Part shown: piece by piece, positions 326 to 9,598 of the stretch | How the letters are laid out: every line of letters begins with the position of its first letter | Position numbering within the stretch: the first letter of the stretch is position 1 | Source: Okeania sp. | Lineage (GTDB): Bacteria > Cyanobacteriota > Cyanobacteriia > Cyanobacteriales > Microcoleaceae | DNA: 9,598 bases | Assembly (NCBI RefSeq): GCF_035285525.1 | Contig: NZ_JAYKGW010000212.1 | Span: 1 to 9,598 of the forward strand | Reading direction: 5' to 3' | Translations under genes and position numbers: made by a program | Notes under the pieces: model-generated | What the model saw: the letters and a program-made list of their open reading frames with translations, nothing else | Database searches by the model: none | Told to the model about the DNA's origin: nothing

Positions 326-1486
326 TCAGTTTATCCTTTTCCACCATCCGCGTATCCGCGACGAAATCCCTGTCTGACTCTGTTTTTGTTGCCGACAAAG
401 TTCGAGATTTTTTCGTACAGTCTGAGTATGAGGATGTTCCTGACCTAATGTTTGTTCAAACATATCTAATGCTTGCAAAAACAAAGGTTCTGCTGCTTCG
501 TATTTTCCTTGAGAACGATATAATTCTGCTAAGTTATTGAGGTGATTGGCAAGAGAGGGATGATTTTCGGGTAAAGCAACTTTGTCGATTTCAATAGCTT
601 GCAAATACAAAGGTTCTGCTGCTTCGTATTTTCCTTGAGATTCATATAATCCTGCTAAGTTATTGAGATTGCTTGCCAAACCTTCCTCCAAACCCAACTC
701 TTGCTGCCAAGCTATTGCCTTCTGAAAATATCCCATCGCTTTCTGCACCTCCTCCTGATAATCTTCATATTCCCCACGTTCCAACCGTCGAGCAAAAATC
801 TTTCCCAAACTCCCATAAAAAGTCACCAAACTAACATCCTTCTCTCCCTTTTCCCGTTCAATATCAGAAATCAACTCCTGCAAATCTGTCACAGGCAAAA
901 AATAAGGGTCATCATCATCCACCTCATCCCACCTCTCACCCAAAACCGGAGCCAAAAAATCCACATCCTGCTTTGGAAGAGCCTTTTTCTGAAAAGAAAC
1001 AAACCGAAATACACCCTTGCGCCACGCCCAAAAATCCGGCGCTCTTTTACTCAGACTGCATTCCATTTGCAACGTCATCCACAAGACAATAGAAAAAGGA
1101 AATTGTCGCAAAGCCTCCCGCGTCCACTGTAAATAACCGAAAAACTTATCCTGTTCCGATCTTTCCCCATCCAAAGTCAAAAAACGCAACCCCTCCACAC
1201 CCGTCACAGTAATTACAGCTTGATTTCCTGCCTGCAAATATTCATCAGTTTCCACCACCGAAGCGATCGCCGCCCTCAGACTAGGTTCACCTTTTGGTAT
1301 CTGCACTCGATAGCAAGGAATATTAGGGGATAATTCTGTTTCATACTTGCGAATTATTTTTTCTCTATATTGACTATCATCACAAACAGCAATCAGAATA
1401 TTTAAAGTTCGGTAACTCGCCTCAATAGAAACAATTAAATCATCATAATTGTTCTGATTCTCTAGATTTTCTAGCAACTTTTTCAT
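326..1486 (-). CDS. TPR-repeat protein with an uncharacterised, Walker-A-less N-terminal domain (386 aa)
   Basis: Full-length ORF with ATG at 1486. The C-terminal ~150 aa hold three 42-residue kinesin-light-chain-type TPR units (LASNLNNLAGLYESQGKYEAAEPLYLQAIEI; LANHLNNLAELYRSQGKYEAAEPLFLQALDM). The N-terminal ~230 aa lack a GxxxxGK[ST] motif but carry conserved-looking strings: LNILIAVCDD, AVITVTGVEGL, FFGYLQWTREALRQFPFSIVLWMT, APDFWAWRKGVFRF. An acidic linker WDEVDDDDPYF follows. Confidence 0.9.
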   Translation of the reverse strand: MKKLLENLENQNNYDDLIVSIEASYRTLNILIAVCDDSQYREKIIRKYETELSPNIPCYRVQIPKGEPSLRAAIASVVETDEYLQAGNQAVITVTGVEGLRFLTLDGERSEQDKFFGYLQWTREALRQFPFSIVLWMTLQMECSLSKRAPDFWAWRKGVFRFVSFQKKALPKQDVDFLAPVLGERWDEVDDDDPYFLPVTDLQELISDIEREKGEKDVSLVTFYGSLGKIFARRLERGEYEDYQEEVQKAMGYFQKAIAWQQELGLEEGLASNLNNLAGLYESQGKYEAAEPLYLQAIEIDKVALPENHPSLANHLNNLAELYRSQGKYEAAEPLFLQALDMFEQTLGQEHPHTQTVRKNLELCRQQKQSQTGISSRIRGWWKRIN

Positions 1487-1514
1487 ATCAGCTATTATAT
1501 TTTAATAAATTTAA

Positions 1515-1637
1515 TTATTGAGCAAGCTTGTCAAAGGGAAGTTTGGGGGAATTAAACCGTTCCATATCTTTAACAAAGGAAATAATTAAGTCATCATAAT
1601 TATTCTGATTTTCCAGATTTTCTAGCAACTTTTTCAT
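1515..1637 (-). pseudogene. 40-codon ORF / 5' gene fragment duplicating the start region of the downstream TPR gene
   Basis: MKKLLENLENQNNYDDLIIS... is near-identical to the first 20 residues of the 326-1486 product (MKKLLENLENQNNYDDLIVS...). The DNA repeat (~1578-1647 vs ~1427-1496, offset 151 bp, roughly 90 percent identical by eye) includes ~10 nt upstream of the ATG, then diverges. This could be a remnant of recombination or a real small ORF. Confidence 0.4.
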
Positions 1638-1678
1638 ATCAGTTATAGCAATCTTAAATAGTTTGTAATATAGATATA

Positions 1679-1762
1679 ACTTACACAGATGAACCGAGAA
1701 ACCCGGTTTGTACAAGAAACCGGGTTTCTGCAAGAAGAGACCGGGTTTCTTTGCCTAAGTCT
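1679..1762. mobile_element. Family-B MITE-like element (ends ACTTACACAGATGAACC... / ...TTGCCTAAGTCT) with internal perfect 13-bp hairpin
   Basis: The left end matches the family-B terminus seen at 3188-3289 and 6062-6161. There is a perfect inverted repeat AGAAACCCGGTTT (1697-1709) / AAACCGGGTTTCT (1717-1729) with a 7-nt loop, and a third half-site AGACCGGGTTTCT at 1738-1750. Confidence 0.6.
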
Positions 1763-1793
1763 TAGCTCCATATTTTTAATAAGTTGGTATTAA

Positions 1794-1832
1794 TTATCCA
1801 TTATCCATTATCCATTATCCATTATCCATTAT
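1794..1832. repeat. Heptamer tandem repeat (TTATCCA)x5 plus a partial copy, STRR-like
   Basis: Five perfect TTATCCA units at 1794-1828. The next, diverged unit supplies the stop codon (TAA, 1829-1831 on the minus strand) of the NTPase gene. Heptamer tandem repeats (STRR) are characteristic of heterocystous cyanobacteria. Confidence 0.9.
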
Positions 1833-3112
1833 AACTTCCCCTTCCTTTGCAAAATTTCTGTAACAATAGGGTGAACATCATACCAAAGTTTTGCATTGCG
1901 ATACTCTAGCACATATAACCCATGCAATAGATCTAAAAATCTTTGTTCTTTCGGGTCATTTGGAGTAAAGAATTGATAAGTTTGCTGTAAAAGTTCATAG
2001 TCCGCATTTCCAATTCTCGTATCAAAATCAATACTAATATTAGTAATAGCTTCCTGTAGCACTTCAGCATTAATTTTTATGTCTAAATCATCTGGTTTGC
2101 GCCGAATTAACCGCAGACAAATTCGACAACATTGATTAGTTATTCTGACTAATTCTCGTAATACTCCACCACTATAAATAATAATTTTCTTAACAACTTC
2201 TGGCTCAATTAAATCTCTGGAAATGCGTTTATACATCACATCAGTTAACATAGCGATCGCTTCTGATATTGGCTCAGAATTATTTATGTAACGTTCTCCC
2301 TGTTTAAACAATTTAGAAACTGGCATTATCACAATTTGATTATTAGTTTCTGTTGTTAAAGTTCCTGCCATCCGTACTTCCCGTAAAGCAGAAATCGGAA
2401 CAGTAAAAATAACTCTAATATTGGGTTGAAATAATGATTTGACATTTTCTTCAAAAACCTGTCTTACTACACCCAAATCAATTTTATCTAAATCATCAAT
2501 AATCACTAAAATTTCTTTCTGAGAAGCACCCTGAACCACAGCAGCAATTTCATTAATTCTAGCAATTAAATCAGATATTTTTCGGTTAAATTCTTGTTTA
2601 ATTTCATCTCTAATAGTAGCATCAGCTTTTAACTTCCCACTAATTATTTTAAATAAGTCAAAACCAACCCCAACTCCAGCTTGAGATTCTTCAATTTCTG
2701 TTCTAGTGTGCTTGGCAAACCACTTATAAAATTGCTCTTTTATAGAAGGTTTAATTTTTATCTTTTGTTTTTCAGCTTCCTCCATTAAACGAACAGCGAT
2801 CGCGAACAAAATATTAATGTGATTAACATCGGACATTTCTATCGAATCAGAGATAGAGAAAAACACCACAAAATATTTATCTGCCATCCGCCGACCAAAC
2901 TGTGCTAAAAGAGTAGATTTACCACATCCCCGATGACCAGCAAAAATTATTTTACTATCTCCAGAAGGACTATCCTCCACCAGTTGTTCCAACTCTTCAA
3001 TAGTTTCAGTTCCATATTCAACCCAGAACTTTTTCAGTGCCGTTTCTGTCAGTAATGGTAGAAGTTCCATATTTCTATAAGCTTCCCGAAATGGTTCTAA
3101 TAATTGACTCAT
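1829..3112 (-). CDS. AAA+/STAND-like P-loop NTPase (427 aa), ORC/Cdc6- or archaeal-ATPase-like
   Basis: Walker A GHRGCGKST is encoded at 2912-2938 and Walker B EILVIIDDLD at 2486-2515. A ~140-aa helical insert lies between them. There is a sensor-1-like VIFTVP and a sensor-2-like SGGVLRELVR, then a helical, possibly winged-helix C-terminus. Only ~55 aa precede the P-loop and there is no repeat/sensor domain. Confidence 0.92.
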   Translation of the reverse strand: MSQLLEPFREAYRNMELLPLLTETALKKFWVEYGTETIEELEQLVEDSPSGDSKIIFAGHRGCGKSTLLAQFGRRMADKYFVVFFSISDSIEMSDVNHINILFAIAVRLMEEAEKQKIKIKPSIKEQFYKWFAKHTRTEIEESQAGVGVGFDLFKIISGKLKADATIRDEIKQEFNRKISDLIARINEIAAVVQGASQKEILVIIDDLDKIDLGVVRQVFEENVKSLFQPNIRVIFTVPISALREVRMAGTLTTETNNQIVIMPVSKLFKQGERYINNSEPISEAIAMLTDVMYKRISRDLIEPEVVKKIIIYSGGVLRELVRITNQCCRICLRLIRRKPDDLDIKINAEVLQEAITNISIDFDTRIGNADYELLQQTYQFFTPNDPKEQRFLDLLHGLYVLEYRNAKLWYDVHPIVTEILQRKGKL

Positions 3113-3187
3113 ATTCTTCTAAATTGTTTGGTTTTATAATAGTAGTATAGAATTAATTGGTACAAGTAAATAAGAATTAATTTTACT

Positions 3188-3289
3188 AGGACTTACACGG
3201 GAGGAACCCGGTTTCTATAATAAATCGTTGTTTTGAGCAGTAATAATCTACCCTCATACCCAGTTTCTGGGTTCATCTGCGTAAGTCCT
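3188..3289. mobile_element. Family-B MITE-like element, ~102 bp, imperfect ~30-bp terminal inverted repeats
   Basis: The left end AGGACTTACACGGGAGGAACCCGGTTTCT is opposed to the right end CCCAGTTTCTGGGTTCATCTGCGTAAGTCCT (reverse complement AGGACTTACGCAGATGAACCCAGAAACTGGG). It has no coding capacity. Confidence 0.65.
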
Positions 3290-3476
3290 GTTTACTATAA
3301 AGGTAGCTAATATCAAATCTGGTAATATCGGTATAAAAAAGCCAGAAAATATGTCTACCATACAGTAGATACCATCAAACTCAAATAAATCATCTATCTC
3401 AAGATAGATATTTCATACCTGTCTTGATGTAACCATTCAGCTATTACTCCCTTCCCGGTGGAAGATTTCCTATAAG

Positions 3477-3563
3477 GTAGGTTGGGTTTTAGCTTGCTTC
3501 CGCGCAGCAGTACGAAGTCAAACCCAACACAGACGTTGGGTTTCGTACCTCAACCCAACCTAC
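3477..3563. repeat. Two abutting family-A repeats in opposite orientation forming a large composite inverted repeat
   Basis: 3477-3528 is GTAGGTTGGGTT + long-loop variant + AAACCCAAC. 3535-3563 is GTTGGGTTTCGTACCTCAACCCAACCTAC, the reverse complement of the 92-120 unit. The outer 12-mers GTAGGTTGGGTT / AACCCAACCTAC are complementary. Confidence 0.8.
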
Positions 3564-3599
3564 AATCTCAGGAATGAAGTAACTATAGCAATCCTATTT

Positions 3600-5021
3600 T
3601 CAACCTCTTTTCAGCAAGTGTTCTTGATTGAATAAAATCCAGTTTTTTAATCCTAATGCAAACTCAGAATTATTATCTAAATTTAAAGCGCGATCGCATA
3701 CAATTAATGCTTTTTTCCATCTTCCAATTTTAGCTAAAGACCAAGCAAAGTTTGCCTGTATCCAAGATTCTTGTGGAGATAATTTTACGGCTTTTTCTAA
3801 TTGTTGAAGTGCTTCTTGCCATTTTTGTTGCCGACAATTAATTAAACCTAAAACTCCATAACTTCTCCCATCGTTAGGATTAATTTTAATTGCTTGATTA
3901 GCTGCAATAATAGCTTGGTTATCTTCGATATAAACTAATATCATTGCTAACTCTACTGCTGCTATACCATGATCAGTTTCTTCGAGCAAACAATGTTGAT
4001 AAGCCGAAACTGCTCCCGTTAAATTTCCTTGTTTTAAAATTTGTCTAGCTTGCTTTAAATTTTCAGAAATAAACTTACCTTTCAGTGCCTCAATTAATTC
4101 ATCAGCAGTTTGAAAACGTTCCTCTATTTCTATTTTCATTCCTTTTAAAATAATTTCTTCTGTTTGAACAGAAATTGATGGTTCTATTTGCCGGGGAGAA
4201 ATTAAACTTTCTGAACCTAATCTACCAGGAGCTGCTATTGGCATTTCACCTGTTAAAGCATGATAAATTGAAGCACAAATAGCATACAAATCTGTACTAG
4301 GATTAGATTTAGTTAAATTCGTATATTGTTCAATAGGTGAATATCCAGGTGTTAACATAGCAGTCATTTTATTCGTGATATCTGCTAAAAATTTCCTAGC
4401 AGAACCAAAATCAATTAAGATAGCTTGGTCTTGAGAATTAATAATAATATTATCTGGTTTAATATCCCGATGTAAAAAGTTATTAGCATGAACTAACTTT
4501 AAAGCTTCTGTAATTGCAATAAAATATTTTTTGACAATATTTTCGGGAAGTTTACCTCTTTCTTGCAAAATTTTAGATAGAGGCTTACCTAAAACAAATT
4601 CCATAACTAAATAAGCAGTATTATTAGCTTCAAACCAGTTAATTACTCTGACAATATTAGGATGAACACATTTGTTCAAAGATTTTGCCTCTGTCTTAAA
4701 TTTTTGGATTTGTTCTTGTTGAATTTTAGGAGAAATAGAAGGAGGCCAAATAATATTAACTCCATGCCTAAGAAACTTATCAGGGCAAAGTTCCTTAATC
4801 GCTACATCAGTAAAATTTTCTAAATCAATTGCTTTATAAGTAATGCCAAAACCACCCTCACCTAAAACTTTTTCTATTCTGTATTTACCTTGCTGAAGTA
4901 AAGTACCATTAGGCAGTTGATATCCTACTGAATCTAAAGTTTTTAAAGCAAAACCACAAGCAGTACAAGTAATAGCTATATCAAGATTTTCTGTGGCACA
5001 AATTGGGCAATTTATTAACAT
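3600..5021 (-). CDS. Hanks-type Ser/Thr protein kinase with N-terminal zinc ribbon and C-terminal TPR repeats (473 aa)
   Basis: N-terminal CPIC-x10-CTAC. Kinase motifs are the glycine loop GEGGFG, VAIK, catalytic loop HRDIKPDN, DFG and PGYSPIEQ (APE equivalent). The C-terminal ~150 aa have TPR-like helices (e.g. GVLGLINCRQQKWQEALQQLEKAVKLSP). I set the start at ATG 5021 (MLINCPIC...) because the 30 upstream codons of the ORF track merely translate tandem family-A repeats. Confidence 0.92.
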   Translation of the reverse strand: MLINCPICATENLDIAITCTACGFALKTLDSVGYQLPNGTLLQQGKYRIEKVLGEGGFGITYKAIDLENFTDVAIKELCPDKFLRHGVNIIWPPSISPKIQQEQIQKFKTEAKSLNKCVHPNIVRVINWFEANNTAYLVMEFVLGKPLSKILQERGKLPENIVKKYFIAITEALKLVHANNFLHRDIKPDNIIINSQDQAILIDFGSARKFLADITNKMTAMLTPGYSPIEQYTNLTKSNPSTDLYAICASIYHALTGEMPIAAPGRLGSESLISPRQIEPSISVQTEEIILKGMKIEIEERFQTADELIEALKGKFISENLKQARQILKQGNLTGAVSAYQHCLLEETDHGIAAVELAMILVYIEDNQAIIAANQAIKINPNDGRSYGVLGLINCRQQKWQEALQQLEKAVKLSPQESWIQANFAWSLAKIGRWKKALIVCDRALNLDNNSEFALGLKNWILFNQEHLLKRG

Positions 5022-5033
5022 TTTCTTTGAACC

Positions 5034-5189
5034 ATAATAGAAGTAGGTTGGGTTGAGGCACAAAACCCAACCACAATAATAGAAGTAGAAGTAGGTTGGG
5101 TTGAGGCACAAAACCCAACCACAATAATAGAAGTAGGTTAGGTTTGACTGTTGTACCGCTACAGGTCAGCAAGCAACAACCCAAGCTAC
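5034..5189. repeat. Tandem array of family-A repeats (42-bp unit, 48-bp unit, diverged long-loop third unit) immediately upstream of the kinase start
   Basis: Units at 5034-5075 and 5076-5123 share ATAATAGAAGTAGGTTGGGTTGAGGCACAAAACCCAACCACA; the second has an extra AGAAGT. The third unit, 5124-5189, begins identically and then carries a longer loop (GTAGGTTAGGTTTGACTG...CAACAACCCAAGCTAC). Confidence 0.9.
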
Positions 5190-5223
5190 ATTTTTAGATA
5201 AAACAATTGGATTATAGCTAAAG

Positions 5224-5877
5224 TCAAGTAATTAAAAATAATAACCTAATTTTACCTATAGAAATTTCATCTCCTGAATTTAATATTGTTGGTTTATTCA
5301 TACGATATCCAAACCGAGTTTTACCTATAGGTTTAATATAAATACCATAAGTTGAACCCATATCTTTTATGTGCCATTGATTATTTTCAAAATAGATTTC
5401 TGCATGAGTTGAGGAAACAGTCTCATTTCCATAAAACCCATCTAAATCAATTTCTACTGGTCCGATATTTGGGTCAAATTTACCAATAATAGCATTGTGA
5501 CTATCAATAATAAATTCTCTTATCGGCGCACCTACTTCTTTAGAAATTAGTTTAGCAACAATGCTTTTACTAAGAGGAGTACGGGTAGAACTTATAGGCG
5601 ATATATGGTTTTTTTGAGCATCTTCTATGATTTGATTTTGGCTGGCAAAAATATTGGTATTTACTGGTGTTTTTAGGGGATAGTTATTAATATTTTGATT
5701 GAAGTTTAATTGTTGTTCATCTGATTGAATAAATGTTTTTCCTCCTGGATTTTTCATCCATTGTTCTTGGGCTGTAAATGAATTGATTGATGTTTGAATT
5801 TCTGAACCACAAACTTCACAAAATTCGTTTGTGTCCGTATTTCTATTGTAAAAACATAAATTACAAGTAATAGCCAT
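5224..5877 (-). CDS. Zinc-ribbon + FHA domain protein (217 aa from ATG 5877; a TTG at 5889 would add 4 codons)
   Basis: N-terminal CNLC-x11-CEVC, then a Q/N-rich low-complexity linker, then a C-terminal FHA fold signature: IIGKFD...VEIDLD...VSSTHAEIYFENNQWHIKDMGSTYGIYI...LNSGDEISIGKIRLLF. The zinc ribbon / linker / FHA layout is reminiscent of Anabaena FraH, but I do not claim orthology. Confidence 0.9.
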   Translation of the reverse strand: MAITCNLCFYNRNTDTNEFCEVCGSEIQTSINSFTAQEQWMKNPGGKTFIQSDEQQLNFNQNINNYPLKTPVNTNIFASQNQIIEDAQKNHISPISSTRTPLSKSIVAKLISKEVGAPIREFIIDSHNAIIGKFDPNIGPVEIDLDGFYGNETVSSTHAEIYFENNQWHIKDMGSTYGIYIKPIGKTRFGYRMNKPTILNSGDEISIGKIRLLFLIT

Positions 5878-5973
5878 AATTATTGTCAAAAAAAATTATT
5901 TATTTAGGGGAAATATATTATTTTGTGTAAGTCCTGATATAACAATATGAAATAATTTGTCAGAAAAAACTTT

Positions 5974-6026
5974 AGGGGTTTGGTTTCCAAATCCCTTTGC
6001 GTTTGGGGAAAGGAGACCAAACCCCT
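5974..6026. repeat. Family-C hairpin repeat AGGGGTTTGGTTTCC...GGAGACCAAACCCCT
   Basis: Inverted arms at both ends of a 53-bp unit. A second copy of the family lies at 7298-7349. A solo family-B terminus (TGTGTAAGTCCT) sits nearby at 5924-5935. Confidence 0.75.
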
Positions 6027-6061
6027 ACAATCAAATCTTACAACCTATTATTGCTATATTC

Positions 6062-6161
6062 AGAACTTACGCAGAAACTGGATTAATCAACAAAATTTTG
6101 TGGTTTGAACAACAATATCACAACAATAAACCCGGTTGATTTCTGGCTTTGTGTAACTTCT
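6062..6161. mobile_element. Family-B MITE-like element (~100 bp)
   Basis: Left end AGAACTTACGCAGAAACTGG and right end AAACCCGGTTGATTTCTGGCTTTGTGTAACTTCT, the same terminal motif family as 3188-3289 and 1679-1762. Confidence 0.55.
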
Positions 6162-6196
6162 GTTATTCTGAAAAAATCTACTCCTTACTTTAACTT

Positions 6197-6580
6197 TTAA
6201 CAAAAATTTAGAGGAGGTAATGCTCCTATTTTTGGTTCTATATCAGATAAATCTGAATCAATAACTGAGGAAATTGTTTGATTTTCTAAGTCTGTTAGAT
6301 TATGAATATTCTGATAATTAACTGTAGGTAAGTCTAGCATAATACTACTGTCTCGATATCCTTCTTTTATATCTTCAATCCAAGTTTTAATAATTCCCTG
6401 CAACTGAATTTCATTGATTTTACAGTTACTTTGCTTTTCTAGTTCATTTTTAATTTTATTACATACTATGGGAGTAAAAAAAATTGTTGGCTGGTCTTCA
6501 TAATATTGTCCTAAGTCTACAGTATATCTATATTTTTGATTAGTATTTTTTTTAGTAACATTTAGAGAATATTGAACCAT
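6197..6580 (-). CDS. Hypothetical protein (127 aa), no recognisable domain
   Basis: An open frame of 127 codons is unlikely by chance in such AT-rich DNA. It has an ATG start at 6580, the same strand as the downstream cluster, and an amphipathic, acidic composition. It has no motif I recognise. Confidence 0.55.
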   Translation of the reverse strand: MVQYSLNVTKKNTNQKYRYTVDLGQYYEDQPTIFFTPIVCNKIKNELEKQSNCKINEIQLQGIIKTWIEDIKEGYRDSSIMLDLPTVNYQNIHNLTDLENQTISSVIDSDLSDIEPKIGALPPLNFC

Positions 6581-7223: not shown

Positions 7224-7297
7224 ATATACAGCCATATTATAGTAAATTTCTCTAGTTCATTTATAGCAATCCTAAATAGATTTTCAGATTTCATAGT

Positions 7298-7349
7298 AGG
7301 GGTTTGTTTTCCAAACCCAAATGGAAAAGAATTTGGAGACTAAACCCCT
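7298..7349. repeat. Family-C hairpin repeat AGGGGTTTGTTTTCCAAA...TTTGGAGACTAAACCCCT
   Basis: It has the same terminal arms as 5974-6026. It is the sequence translated by the TTG-initiated extension of the 7304 ORF. Confidence 0.75.
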
Positions 7350-7414
7350 GCAGTTTTTTCTCACAAATGATTTCTTATGACTATACCTTTCTATATTTCT
7401 GCAAATTAAAGAAG

Positions 7415-9439
7415 ATGAATTTTATACAAAATAATATGGCAAAATTTCCCAAATATATATTTAGATTTGCCCTTGTACTTTGCATCGGTTTACTATCAGT
7501 TTTTCTCCTCTCTCCTGTCCAAGCTGAAGATGTAAAAATTATCAAAGCTCCAGTGATATTAGATAGTCGAATATTGTTAGAAATTGAACCTTTAGATAAC
7601 TACACAGCTCAGGAGCGAGCTGCATCTATCACATCAACTTTAGAGTCAGCATTAGCTGATAGTATTGAACAAAAAATCCCGCCCAAGGTGGAACTACAAA
7701 AGAAAACACCTCCAAAACTCAAAGTAACTCCTTCTGAACAAAATGTGGAATTGACTGTTGATACTGCTCTCTTGGTAGAAGTAGAATCAGATGATAATCG
7801 CCTGTTAGTCAAAGTAGTTCCCATTGAGCAAAATTTAGAATTAATGGTTAACAGTCGTCTCTTGATGGAGGTAGAATCAGAAGAGGAGGCAAAAACATTG
7901 CAGGAACAACTCCAGCAGAGTTTAGATAAAATTTGGCAGGAACGGACAGCTAATACCAAAAATACCGAAATGTCTGAATTTGAATTAAGAATAGCACTCA
8001 AATATCTGACAATTGCTTTTGTGATCACTCTGTTGCTTCAGACAGGATTAGTATTACTATTTCGTCAAGTTCTACGTCGGAAGATCAAAAACCCTGAAAG
8101 ACGTTGGTACTCATTGCAATTATTGGTTCTGGTCTTATTACAGGTAGGAGTATGGGCGACATTTATCTGGTATGGAGTCAAATTATTTCCCATAACTGAA
8201 GATTGGTTTTACCAAGTTGTTGAACATCTAAACAAAACATTTAGTAGCCAAATGTTTCAATTGGGAGAAGAGAAGATTTCTCTCAACCGCATATTAGCGA
8301 TCGCTTTAACCGTTGTAGCACTTTGGATCGGGGTAAGTTGGTTTATTCGTATTCTCAAATCTCGCTTACTCCCACTCATAGAAGTTGAACGCAGTCACCA
8401 AGATGCAATTGCTTTTTTTGCTCAATATGCACTACTATCTATTGGCACACTCTTAATTATCAATGCTGGAGGAGTAGATTTTCAATCTATAGCTATTTTA
8501 ATTGGGGCGCTGGGAATCGGTATTGGTTTTGGATTACAAAATATTGTGAAAGACTTTATTTGTGGATTAATTTTAATTGTCGTCCGTCCGATCAAAGTTG
8601 GAGAGTTAGTCCAGGTGGGAGAATTTCAAGGTTTAGTTCAACGCATTGGTACTAGGACTACTGATATCTCCAATATCGAACGCTACATTATTACTATTCC
8701 TAATTCTCGCTTTATTGAAGGGGAAGTGCTCAACTGGAACCGTAGTGGTATCACGAGGGTGAAAGCTTATGTAACAATTCCCTACGAAACAGATATTGAC
8801 TTTGTCTACAGGGTTCTACTTGCTGCTGCACAAGTAGAACATCCAGATATTTTGCGTCATCCTCCCCCCAAGGTTAAATTTCGGGAATATATAGAAGATG
8901 GGTTGCAATTTCGGGTGGTAGCATTTATCCGCGATCCTCTGAAGCAACCAAAGGTGAGAACTCACTTATATAACCAGATAGAAATACATTTGCGCAAGTA
9001 TGGCATTGATGTGGCTCGCCCTCAAAAAGACCTAACTCTCAAAGAACTCGACCCAGAAATCTATGGTTGGCTGCGATCGCAAACCTCTGATGAGTTCCGA
9101 GTTATATCTCAAGAAACTCAATTTCTTGAACCTCCTGTTATCAAAGAAGAGTACGACTGGGAGGCGATATCTAATGCAATGCGGGGAGAGAATGGAGTTT
9201 CTATCAAAGATCGACGGTTTAAGTTTAAGCTCTTTAAAAATGTCTTTTTAGGTTCGGAAGCAGTGGAGTGGTTAATGGTTAATGAACGAGCTACGAGGGA
9301 AGAGGCAATAATGATGGGTGAGTTAATGTTGCAACAAGAAATAATTCACCACATTTTTGATGAACATCGTTTTAAGGATGAACCTCTGTTTTATAGATTC
9401 TATAATGATGAGGAAGTAGAAAGTAATGTCGAATCCTGA
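7415..9439 (+). CDS. MscS-family mechanosensitive channel with signal peptide, repeat-containing periplasmic N-domain and C-terminal DEP domain (674 aa from ATG 7415; ATG 7436 is an alternative start)
   Basis: Signal-peptide-like FALVLCIGLLSVFLLSPVQA-ED. About five TM helices. Pore helix and beta-domain signature GALGIGIGFGLQNIVKDFICGLILIVVRPIKVGELVQVGEFQGLVQRIGTRTTDISNIERYIITIPNSRFIEGEVLNWNRS. C-terminal DEP-like GVSIKDRRFKFKLFKNVFLGSEAVEWLMVNERATREEAIMMGELMLQQEIIHHIFDEHRFKDEPLFYRFY. I rejected the TTG start at 7304 because it reads through a dispersed repeat. Confidence 0.93.
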   Translation: MNFIQNNMAKFPKYIFRFALVLCIGLLSVFLLSPVQAEDVKIIKAPVILDSRILLEIEPLDNYTAQERAASITSTLESALADSIEQKIPPKVELQKKTPPKLKVTPSEQNVELTVDTALLVEVESDDNRLLVKVVPIEQNLELMVNSRLLMEVESEEEAKTLQEQLQQSLDKIWQERTANTKNTEMSEFELRIALKYLTIAFVITLLLQTGLVLLFRQVLRRKIKNPERRWYSLQLLVLVLLQVGVWATFIWYGVKLFPITEDWFYQVVEHLNKTFSSQMFQLGEEKISLNRILAIALTVVALWIGVSWFIRILKSRLLPLIEVERSHQDAIAFFAQYALLSIGTLLIINAGGVDFQSIAILIGALGIGIGFGLQNIVKDFICGLILIVVRPIKVGELVQVGEFQGLVQRIGTRTTDISNIERYIITIPNSRFIEGEVLNWNRSGITRVKAYVTIPYETDIDFVYRVLLAAAQVEHPDILRHPPPKVKFREYIEDGLQFRVVAFIRDPLKQPKVRTHLYNQIEIHLRKYGIDVARPQKDLTLKELDPEIYGWLRSQTSDEFRVISQETQFLEPPVIKEEYDWEAISNAMRGENGVSIKDRRFKFKLFKNVFLGSEAVEWLMVNERATREEAIMMGELMLQQEIIHHIFDEHRFKDEPLFYRFYNDEEVESNVES

Positions 9440-9460
9440 TAATTATTGTTTATAAAAAAT

Positions 9461-9598
9461 ATTGTAGGGGCGGGTTTTTCTAGAGATGTTTTGGTTGACT
9501 CTCAGATTTAGCTAAACCCGCCCTGTCGATTATTGTAGGGATGGGTTTTTCTAGAGATGTTTTGGTTGACTCTCAGATTTAGCTAAACCCGCCCTGTC
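9461..9598. repeat. Tandem duplication (period 71 bp) of a family-D hairpin repeat GGGCGGGTTT...AAACCCGCCC; second copy truncated by the window end
   Basis: 9461-9531 and 9532-9598 are near-identical. Each has 10-bp inverted arms separated by ~36 nt. The array starts 22 bp after the MscS-DEP stop codon. Confidence 0.9.

Follow-up and report, generated by a model that had tools for sequence, protein, structure and literature searches.

A conserved ATPase/TPR gene pair beside a putatively reduced TerY-P-like kinase gene set in Okeania sp.

The origin recognition complex (ORC) and clamp loaders use arginine fingers in trans, and ORC3 and the AAA-like domain of Sir3 are degenerate members of the AAA+ group. 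In the MoxR-vWA ternary conflict systems, which are concentrated in cyanobacteria, an inactive STAND/AAA+-like protein (iSTAND) partners an active AAA+ protein (Kaur et al. 2020, PMC7159879). The TerY-P triad, in the account that PMC10542128 gives of it after Anantharaman et al. 2012, consists of a TerY-like vWA protein, a PP2C-like phosphatase and a kinase with a C-terminal zinc ribbon; a similar vWA-STPK-FHA-PP2C operon (STPK, Ser/Thr protein kinase) is found at DRA0331-0334 of Deinococcus (bioRxiv 10.64898/2026.01.23.701218). Here we compare with these systems a stretch of 9,598 nucleotides from Okeania sp. (contig NZ_JAYKGW010000212.1 of assembly GCF_035285525.1, hereafter the window), in which genes for an ATPase and a TPR protein lie next to genes for a kinase, an FHA protein and a 127-residue protein, orf127. 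The ORF list and translations place six minus-strand open reading frames (ORFs) between positions 6580 and 326, exactly as an earlier sequence-only reading had them. That reading had the Nostocales in view; the host is Okeania sp. (Oscillatoriales, Microcoleaceae).

From the gene neighbourhoods of relatives, the region very probably comprises two separate units. Unit B (326-3112) would be a two-gene operon of an intact ATPase and a P-loop-less AAA+-like/TPR partner. Unit A (3600-6580) would be a pared-down form of a cluster of orf127, vWA, zinc-ribbon-FHA, PP2C and zinc-ribbon-kinase-TPR genes, acting in phospho-Ser/Thr signalling. The ATPase loci were scanned with one genome per species; more than 534 species genomes held a relative, and the best 80 loci (54-88% identity) were kept. 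Within 10 kb of the ATPase, none of these 80 cyanobacterial loci has an orthologue of the window's kinase, FHA protein or orf127. Likewise, no relative of the ATPase or of the partner's N-terminal domain (N-domain) was found at the ten loci collected around kinase orthologues (six independent contexts, 6-8 kb on each side). The pairing of the ATPase gene with the N-domain-TPR gene is nearly invariant from cyanobacteria to Methanosarcina. Taken as a whole, we consider it likely that the two units are independent, Unit B being an ATPase/pseudo-ATPase switch and Unit A a reduced TerY-P-like set.

The ATPase/TPR gene pair

The pair and its parts lie as follows.
1829-3112, minus strand: ATPase, 427 residues, KAP_NTPase (Pfam)
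2912-2938, minus strand: Walker A, GHRGCGKST in the ATPase translation
2483-2512, minus strand: Walker B, ILVIIDDLDK in the ATPase translation
1487-1828, minus strand: spacer within the pair, with a partial 5'-end duplicate and repeat arrays
326-1486, minus strand: TPR protein, 386 residues, TPR_10/TPR_12 (Pfam)
992-1486, minus strand: N-domain of the TPR protein (residues 1-165), fold from AlphaFold2 (AF2), beta1 strand ending LLIAVCDD
389-775, minus strand: TPR array, kinesin-light-chain-type TPR_10/TPR_12 units, about three here

At 78 of the 80 cyanobacterial loci the TPR partner gene follows directly downstream of the ATPase gene on the same strand, with a partner N-domain 47-83% identical to that of the window; at the other two the sequence ends less than 510 bp after the ATPase. 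The partnership of NTPase and TPR protein proposed from the sequence is thus borne out. In the 78 loci the genes overlap or nearly touch (median ~7 bp; overlaps of 10, 3 and 0 nt are common), compared with which the 342-bp spacer of the window is unusually long. This spacer contains a partial second copy of the TPR gene's 5' region (1574-1646), AGAAACCCGG-type repeats (1697-1750) and a perfect heptamer array, (ATTATCC)5.7 (1793-1832), which reaches up to and over the stop codon of the ATPase gene. The duplicate is 73 nt long and 89% identical to positions 1423-1495, the ribosome-proximal region and first 21 codons of the TPR gene. Two of the six ORFs had been taken for genes of unknown function. 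One of them, ORF 1515-1733, is spurious and not a gene, because it is a by-product of this duplicate; the other, orf127, is conserved and matches nothing.

The pairing extends well outside the cyanobacteria. With the ATPase as query, a library of 1.8 billion representatives (clustered at 50%) yielded 427 clusters at E<=1e-30, mostly of 405-440 residues. In Methanosarcina (locus L099) the ATPase gene is followed, after a 65-bp gap, by a gene for a 583-residue N-domain and TPR protein (hhalign 99.0%, E 2.8e-18), and the same arrangement is present in the distant contexts L102 (hhalign 99.6%, E 7e-24) and, weaker, L104 (83%). In the metagenomic proteins P0405 and P0479 the N-domain and the ATPase are fused in one chain. 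Two other proteins, P0379 (811 residues) and P0207 (420 residues), join the first 110-245 ATPase residues directly to the N-domain, entered midway at GEPSL, and to the TPRs; both resemble products of an in-frame deletion across the gene pair or of chimeric assembly. Across cyanobacterial orders the ATPase identity pattern follows taxonomy, and the neighbours at the loci inspected are of housekeeping type (RuBisCO operon, ClpB, Ndk, HDAC-like and alpha/beta hydrolase genes). Searches of the literature on Sll1717, and on KAP NTPases with TPRs in cyanobacteria, found no publication on the pair. This is an uncharacterised gene pair of hundreds of cyanobacterial species and Methanosarcina, and its partner domain belongs to no Pfam or NCBIfam family.

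Judged by its motifs, the ATPase is a soluble, catalytically intact P-loop NTPase of AAA+/KAP-like type. KAP_NTPase (PF07693) matches residues 42-236 at 34.3 bits against a cut-off of 20; AAA_16 and ATPase_2 are weaker, and the NACHT, NB-ARC, nSTAND5 and AAA_16 matches all fall under their Pfam cut-offs. Both Walker motifs named in the sequence-only reading, GHRGCGKST and ILVIIDDLD, are readable in the translation. A long helical insert separates them, and Walker B is followed by a 'sensor-2-like' GGVLRE motif (GGxxR lid) and then by a winged-helix-like C-terminal end. The alignment from cyanobacteria to Methanosarcina has invariant columns at G59, G62, G64, K65, D206, K210, G315, G316 and R319, and across the wide family no conserved arginine follows beta4, the sensor-1 strand. 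The protein has no hydrophobic segment (maximum Kyte-Doolittle mean over 19 residues 1.09, no window above 1.6), no repeats and no extra domain; the TPRs are encoded by the next gene. The AF2 model, built with 18 close homologues, is of low confidence (predicted local distance difference test, pLDDT, 58), so that its top Foldseek matches, RdrA rings and Cdc6/Orc1, are indicative only. A profile search of the PDB with the ATPase gave only a marginal match to THEP1 (E 7.5e-4).

In the partner protein, Pfam matches are confined to residues 270-366 (TPR_10 E 2e-21, TPR_12 E 7e-20), where a 126-bp unit is repeated (462-541 and 588-667). TPR copy number varies widely among orthologues, which are 217-970 residues long. 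Residues 1-230 match nothing in Pfam, NCBIfam or PHROG. The prediction for the N-domain, which is of good confidence, is a degenerate AAA+-like fold without a P-loop. Its AF2 model from a 38-sequence alignment (pLDDT 85.8, predicted template modelling score 0.81) has a five-stranded alpha/beta core with strands at 29-34, 58-62, 91-95, 132-137 and 159-161. In Foldseek against the PDB, all of the top 50 matches are AAA+ modules (probability >=0.93, E down to 4e-5, template modelling (TM) scores 0.35-0.45), the best being ORC3, NSF D2, ClpC and the Sir3 AAA-like domain. GxxxxGK[ST] occurs in none of the 38 aligned sequences, and in all 38 the loop between beta1 and alpha1 is reduced to CDD(S), three residues; the N-domain therefore lacks a Walker A motif. 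Invariant across the wide family are G96, L119, R123, A149, D151 and F152, and the best-conserved motif, APDFWxW[R/K] (DF[WF]x[WIF][RK] in the wide family), lies just before beta5. The sequence-only reading had pointed to this domain as a possible effector; its predicted fold is that of a degenerate AAA+-like domain instead. We also considered whether it is a degenerate duplicate of the ATPase and rejected this, as no relationship between the two sequences is detectable (hhalign probability 0.2%).

These features suggest how the pair could work. The degenerate N-domain would dock on the ATPase to form a heteromeric, ORC- or clamp-loader-like nucleotide switch, and the TPR array would bind a client or a signal. 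A physical ATPase/pseudo-ATPase complex is, in our judgement, moderately probable. The partner probably completes the ATPase active site, because the ATPase has no conserved arginine after its sensor-1 strand and the partner carries APDFWxW[R/K] at the position of the AAA+ arginine finger. That the partner supplies an arginine finger in trans is more doubtful. An active ATPase with a P-loop-less look-alike bearing TPRs makes a biochemical prediction that can be tested directly.

Several points weigh against this reading of Unit B. The evidence for the arginine finger is predicted secondary structure and motif position; the partner at L104 has a lysine in place of the motif arginine, and R123 is better conserved. 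Contact between the ATPase and the N-domain is putative, the TM-scores of the N-domain are modest and confidence in the ATPase model is low. With Nostoc strongly over-represented among them, the 80 loci amount to far fewer independent observations. Finally, an ATPase relative with an N-terminal TIR_2 domain (P0456, E 5.5e-24) and two paralogous pairs in one genome, Nostoc sp. P2081 bin 11, point to a conflict role in at least some lineages. The ATPases of these two pairs (L027 and L069) differ at their C-termini, …IIIESLRRQGAINVK in the one and …VVELLKEQGLI… in the other.

The TIR fusion and the paralogous pairs bear on an alternative in which the pair is an anti-phage defence of STAND/Avs-like type: the TPRs would sense a phage protein, and ATP-driven oligomerisation would recruit an effector that is encoded elsewhere or fused. 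An NTPase with a winged helix and TPRs follows STAND-like logic, RdrA of RADAR is among the best Foldseek matches, N-terminal extensions are present on two further ATPase relatives (P0369 and P0380), and variable TPR number would suit such a role. Against it, the conserved pair has no effector, and of the 149 sequences examined from the representative search fewer than about 10 have an extra N-terminal domain. Defence is also hard to match with the occurrence of the ATPase in so many species in a pattern that tracks taxonomy, and with neighbours that, at the loci inspected, are housekeeping genes and not defence islands. In PADLOC-DB v2 the pair has weak, generic P-loop or TPR matches only (the ATPase to VakA, E 3e-6 over 70 residues). 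We regard defence as unlikely. A cellular assembly or scaffolding switch is favoured over suicide defence because the pair has no enzymatic effector and its conservation is broad and strong. Tentatively, and at rather less than even chances, the pair may be an ancient two-subunit AAA+ switch of most non-picoplanktonic cyanobacteria and methanogenic archaea, a split relative of STAND and ORC proteins with a core cellular role, in which the pseudo-ATPase supplies an arginine finger and couples ATP turnover to the TPR client array.

The kinase, FHA and orf127 genes

Unit A has three genes.
3600-5021, minus strand (ORF to 5111): kinase, Pkinase and TPR (Pfam), 473 residues from ATG 5021
5224-5877, minus strand (ORF to 5889): FHA protein, with zinc ribbon, low-complexity linker and FHA domain (Pfam)
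6197-6580, minus strand: orf127, 127 residues, no Pfam match

The kinase matches Pkinase (E 8e-40) and, over a short C-terminal region, TPR_2 (E 1e-12). Its motifs GEGGFG, VAIK, HRDIKPDN and DFG can all be read in the translation, as the sequence-only reading had stated, and the set is complete; the CxxC...CxxC zinc ribbons that it noted stand at the N-termini of both the kinase and the FHA protein. The true start of the kinase is most likely ATG 5021 (MLINCPIC), as in its orthologues. An exact tandem duplication of 48 bp (5038-5133, palindromic core GGTTGGGTTGAGGCACAAAACCCAACC) lengthens the ORF spuriously to the TTG at 5111. Related copies of this repeat at 87-134 and 3535-3564 make up a small dispersed family located in spacers. 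For the FHA protein, comparison with orthologues likewise makes ATG 5877 (MAITC) the most likely start. Orthologues of the kinase at 76-86% identity are 468-694 residues long, and members of the wider family are mostly ~700 residues; in related Microcoleus proteins (754 residues), zinc ribbon, kinase and FHA are fused.

The FHA protein, described from the sequence as a phosphothreonine reader, has an FHA domain (Pfam E 5e-12) in which the canonical residues for phosphothreonine binding (GR, SRxH and a loop asparagine) are partly substituted. The window has, as does its lineage, GK for GR and SSTH for SRxH, and it has Tyr181 (5347-5349) in the S-x-N-G loop; position 181 is Asn in five of six aligned relatives and Thr in the sixth, and Tyr appears only in the window sequence. 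Phosphothreonine binding by this domain may be weakened or altered.

Conserved gene order places orf127 with the kinase. The protein is marked by an invariant WIEDIxEGYR core and by an EPxxGxxPPL motif at the C-terminus, is without a match in Pfam, NCBIfam, PADLOC, PHROG or the PDB, and is 42-66% identical to 127-residue ORFs that stand first in the clusters with the kinase from Microcoleaceae, Hormoscilla, Planktothrix and a metagenome. By these comparisons it is a conserved, regular member of cyanobacterial vWA/FHA/PP2C/kinase clusters, which defines the 127-residue protein as a component of them; it goes with the kinase genes and not with the ATPase pair, and the earlier suggestion that the output of a joint module might lie in it is not sustained. 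The FHA gene lies directly upstream of the kinase at L082, L083/84, L090, L092 and L094. In a metagenome and in Microcoleaceae MO_207.B10, kinase orthologues (78-82% identity) are preceded by an FHA protein (64-65%) and, where sequence is available, by orf127 (66%), with no ATPase nearby. The full cluster of orf127, vWA, zinc-ribbon-FHA, PP2C and kinase genes is present in Hormoscilla (L090) and Planktothrix (L092), where kinase orthologues of 55-60% identity stand last in the cluster, the Planktothrix one having an additional kinase-FHA gene; a third context (L094) has vWA, lipoprotein, orf127, FHA and kinase genes. The idea that the kinase/FHA pair belongs to a TerY-P-like neighbourhood is thus supported by the vWA/PP2C/kinase clusters of its relatives.

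The flanks of the Hormoscilla (L090 1-1265 and 10547-12182) and Planktothrix (L092 8416-14079) clusters carry mobile or toxin-antitoxin genes, among them PIN, MNT/HepT, Uma2, CHAT, Tn3 transposase and integrase genes. This suggests a variable, island-like setting for the full clusters. A stress or conflict role for Unit A would be compatible with such toxin-antitoxin, CHAT and transposase surroundings in two genomes. The PADLOC-DB v2 matches of the kinase are generic only (mad6/PD-T4-6), and the FHA protein and orf127 have no specific match.

The sequence-only reading noted that vWA and PP2C are missing, and tblastn and Pfam confirm this for the window. The vWA proteins of L090 and L092 gave a best tblastn E of 0.16 and left no remnant in the spacers, and the PP2C proteins of the same loci gave no tblastn match; no window ORF has a PP2C Pfam match. 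Unit A here would have lost, or never had, these two genes. It could then be a decaying, non-functional remnant of the vWA/FHA/PP2C/kinase cluster after a two-gene loss, a suggestion with which the Tyr181 substitution, the short TPR form of the kinase and the repeats inserted around the Unit A genes would agree. We hold this to be quite unlikely, since all three ORFs are intact, the catalytic motifs of the kinase are complete, and a three-gene set likewise lacking vWA and PP2C is present in Microcoleaceae MO_207.B10 at 64-78% identity, which argues for a maintained reduced variant of Unit A.

The relationship between the two units

Dapis, Okeania KiyG1 and Trichodesmium MO_231.B1, which have the closest relatives of the window's ATPase, carry an alpha/beta hydrolase gene or other genes upstream of the ATPase gene, with no kinase or FHA gene adjacent. 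In GCA_029976225.1, the ATPase (88% identity) and the orf127-FHA-kinase triplet (66/64/78%) are on different contigs with unrelated neighbours. Within the window the intergenic distances are 487, 202 and 307 bp, apart from the 342 bp between the ATPase and TPR genes.

Some observations tell against so clean a separation. Kinase domains are found within 10 kb at 34 of the 80 ATPase loci (26-34% identity, with variable position and strand). In Microcoleus (L006 7747-9504) a zinc-ribbon kinase with a C-terminal multi-pass membrane region is co-oriented with the ATPase and just upstream of it, and in an uncultured cyanobacterium (L080 6680-8440) a kinase of the same zinc-ribbon membrane family is placed in the same way; L080 also has a zinc-ribbon-FHA gene (2234-3229) 7 kb upstream of the pair. 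A zinc-ribbon kinase upstream of the ATPase could be a loose recurrent association or conserved synteny, and a looser link between kinase and ATPase is possible.

That the six genes are one phospho-Thr- and NTP-gated conflict or signalling module, with the ATPase-TPR switch under the control of the kinase and the FHA protein and with an effector that is concealed or encoded elsewhere, is highly improbable: the genes are co-oriented and contiguous in the contig, no terminator-like site is predicted on the minus strand between kinase and ATPase, and the upstream kinases just described would fit, but orthologous adjacency is absent from the ATPase and kinase loci, the units are on separate contigs in the genome with the 88%-identical ATPase, the closest relatives have other genes upstream, the spacers of 200-490 bp are filled with mobile repeats, and the Microcoleus kinases are of another family (26-28% identity, membrane C-terminus). 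The FHA-kinase-NTPase-TPR module of the sequence-only reading is not conserved, an outcome which that reading had itself named as refuting its proposal, and the multi-gene defence candidate built on it does not hold. The best reading of Units A and B side by side in the window is a chance juxtaposition, and a lineage-specific rearrangement in repeat-rich DNA may have brought them together.

Scans of the window add little on transcription. The promoter scan was uninformative (36 promoter-like sites against 29.8 expected), as was the terminator scan, and the Rfam and tRNA scans gave no matches. Inverted repeat copies of 55-87 nt at 5938-6049 and 7262-7385, 75% complementary, flank orf127 and a 723-bp gene-free stretch upstream of it. 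Beyond them, on the plus strand, lies a gene for an MscS-type mechanosensitive channel (7304-9439; MS_channel_2nd E 2e-17) that ends in a DEP domain (E 1.8e-21), a type of domain known chiefly from eukaryotic signalling. The N-terminal region of the channel contains a 90-bp internal repeat (7719-7794 and 7809-7884), and the true start of the gene is probably later than the TTG at 7304, because that codon overlaps a repeat arm. A 71-bp tandem repeat (9460-9598; two copies, 97% identical, with GC-rich inverted ends) reaches the contig end and may be the reason why the assembly stops there.

Comparison with known systems

A cyanobacterial TPR protein with a partner from an overlapping upstream gene has been described in Anabaena PCC 7120, where the filament-forming All4981 is co-transcribed with, and binds, the product of an overlapping upstream gene and is paired with All4982 (PMC7002697). 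From the primer tables of that paper we derived the N-terminus of All4981 (MNSELFQKLAKAQ), the C-terminus of All4982 (...LKSEQL) and internal peptides. These fragments match none of the 78 family pairs and none of the 511 proteins compared, so orthology is not supported and we do not equate the pair with the already characterised All4981/All4982. When one All4981/All4982 primer was scanned against a metagenome, only chance matches in unrelated bacteria came up.

With RdrA of RADAR and the KAP NTPases, the ATPase shares a KAP_NTPase match above the gathering score, Foldseek matches to RdrA rings and a long helical insert. It differs in that the window has no RdrB-like deaminase, the ATPase has no transmembrane insert and the Foldseek matches come from a low-confidence model. 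Aravind and colleagues are said to have described in 2004 that the KAP family has transmembrane helices inserted in the P-loop domain.

STAND proteins with TPR sensors (MalT/AfsR, Avs) resemble the pair in the P-loop NTPase, the helical lid and the winged-helix-like end, in weak AAA_16, NACHT, NB-ARC and nSTAND Pfam matches, and in TPR_10/TPR_12 arrays such as cyanobacterial STANDs commonly carry. In the window, however, the TPRs are on a separate polypeptide, tethered via a degenerate AAA+-like domain, and an N-terminal effector is lacking. The STAND families all score below their Pfam cut-offs, and the conservation of the pair is broad and not patchy. The iSTAND systems (PMC7159879) likewise have an inactive AAA+-like domain partnered with an active ATPase, but the active partner in the window is not MoxR and effector-associated domains are absent. 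A MoxR or vWA gene was found beside the pair neither in the window nor at L002, L003, L006, L040, L080, L096 or L098.

Unit A is closest to the TerY-P systems, as genes for vWA, FHA, PP2C and zinc-ribbon Ser/Thr kinase proteins are clustered in its relatives. In the window vWA and PP2C are absent, the zinc ribbon of the kinase is N-terminal and not C-terminal, and the C-terminus of the kinase is formed by TPRs. A 127-residue protein heads the Unit A cluster and lies outside the TerY-P definition as summarised in PMC10542128.

ORC and clamp loaders differ from Unit B in that no sequence homology is detectable, whether PDB profiles are searched or the two window proteins are compared by hhalign, and in that the window pair has no DNA-replication context and its inactive subunit carries TPRs. 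The likeness is one of architecture: one subunit is active and the other inactive, with an N-domain resembling ORC3, NSF D2 and Sir3 and an ATPase resembling Cdc6/Orc1.

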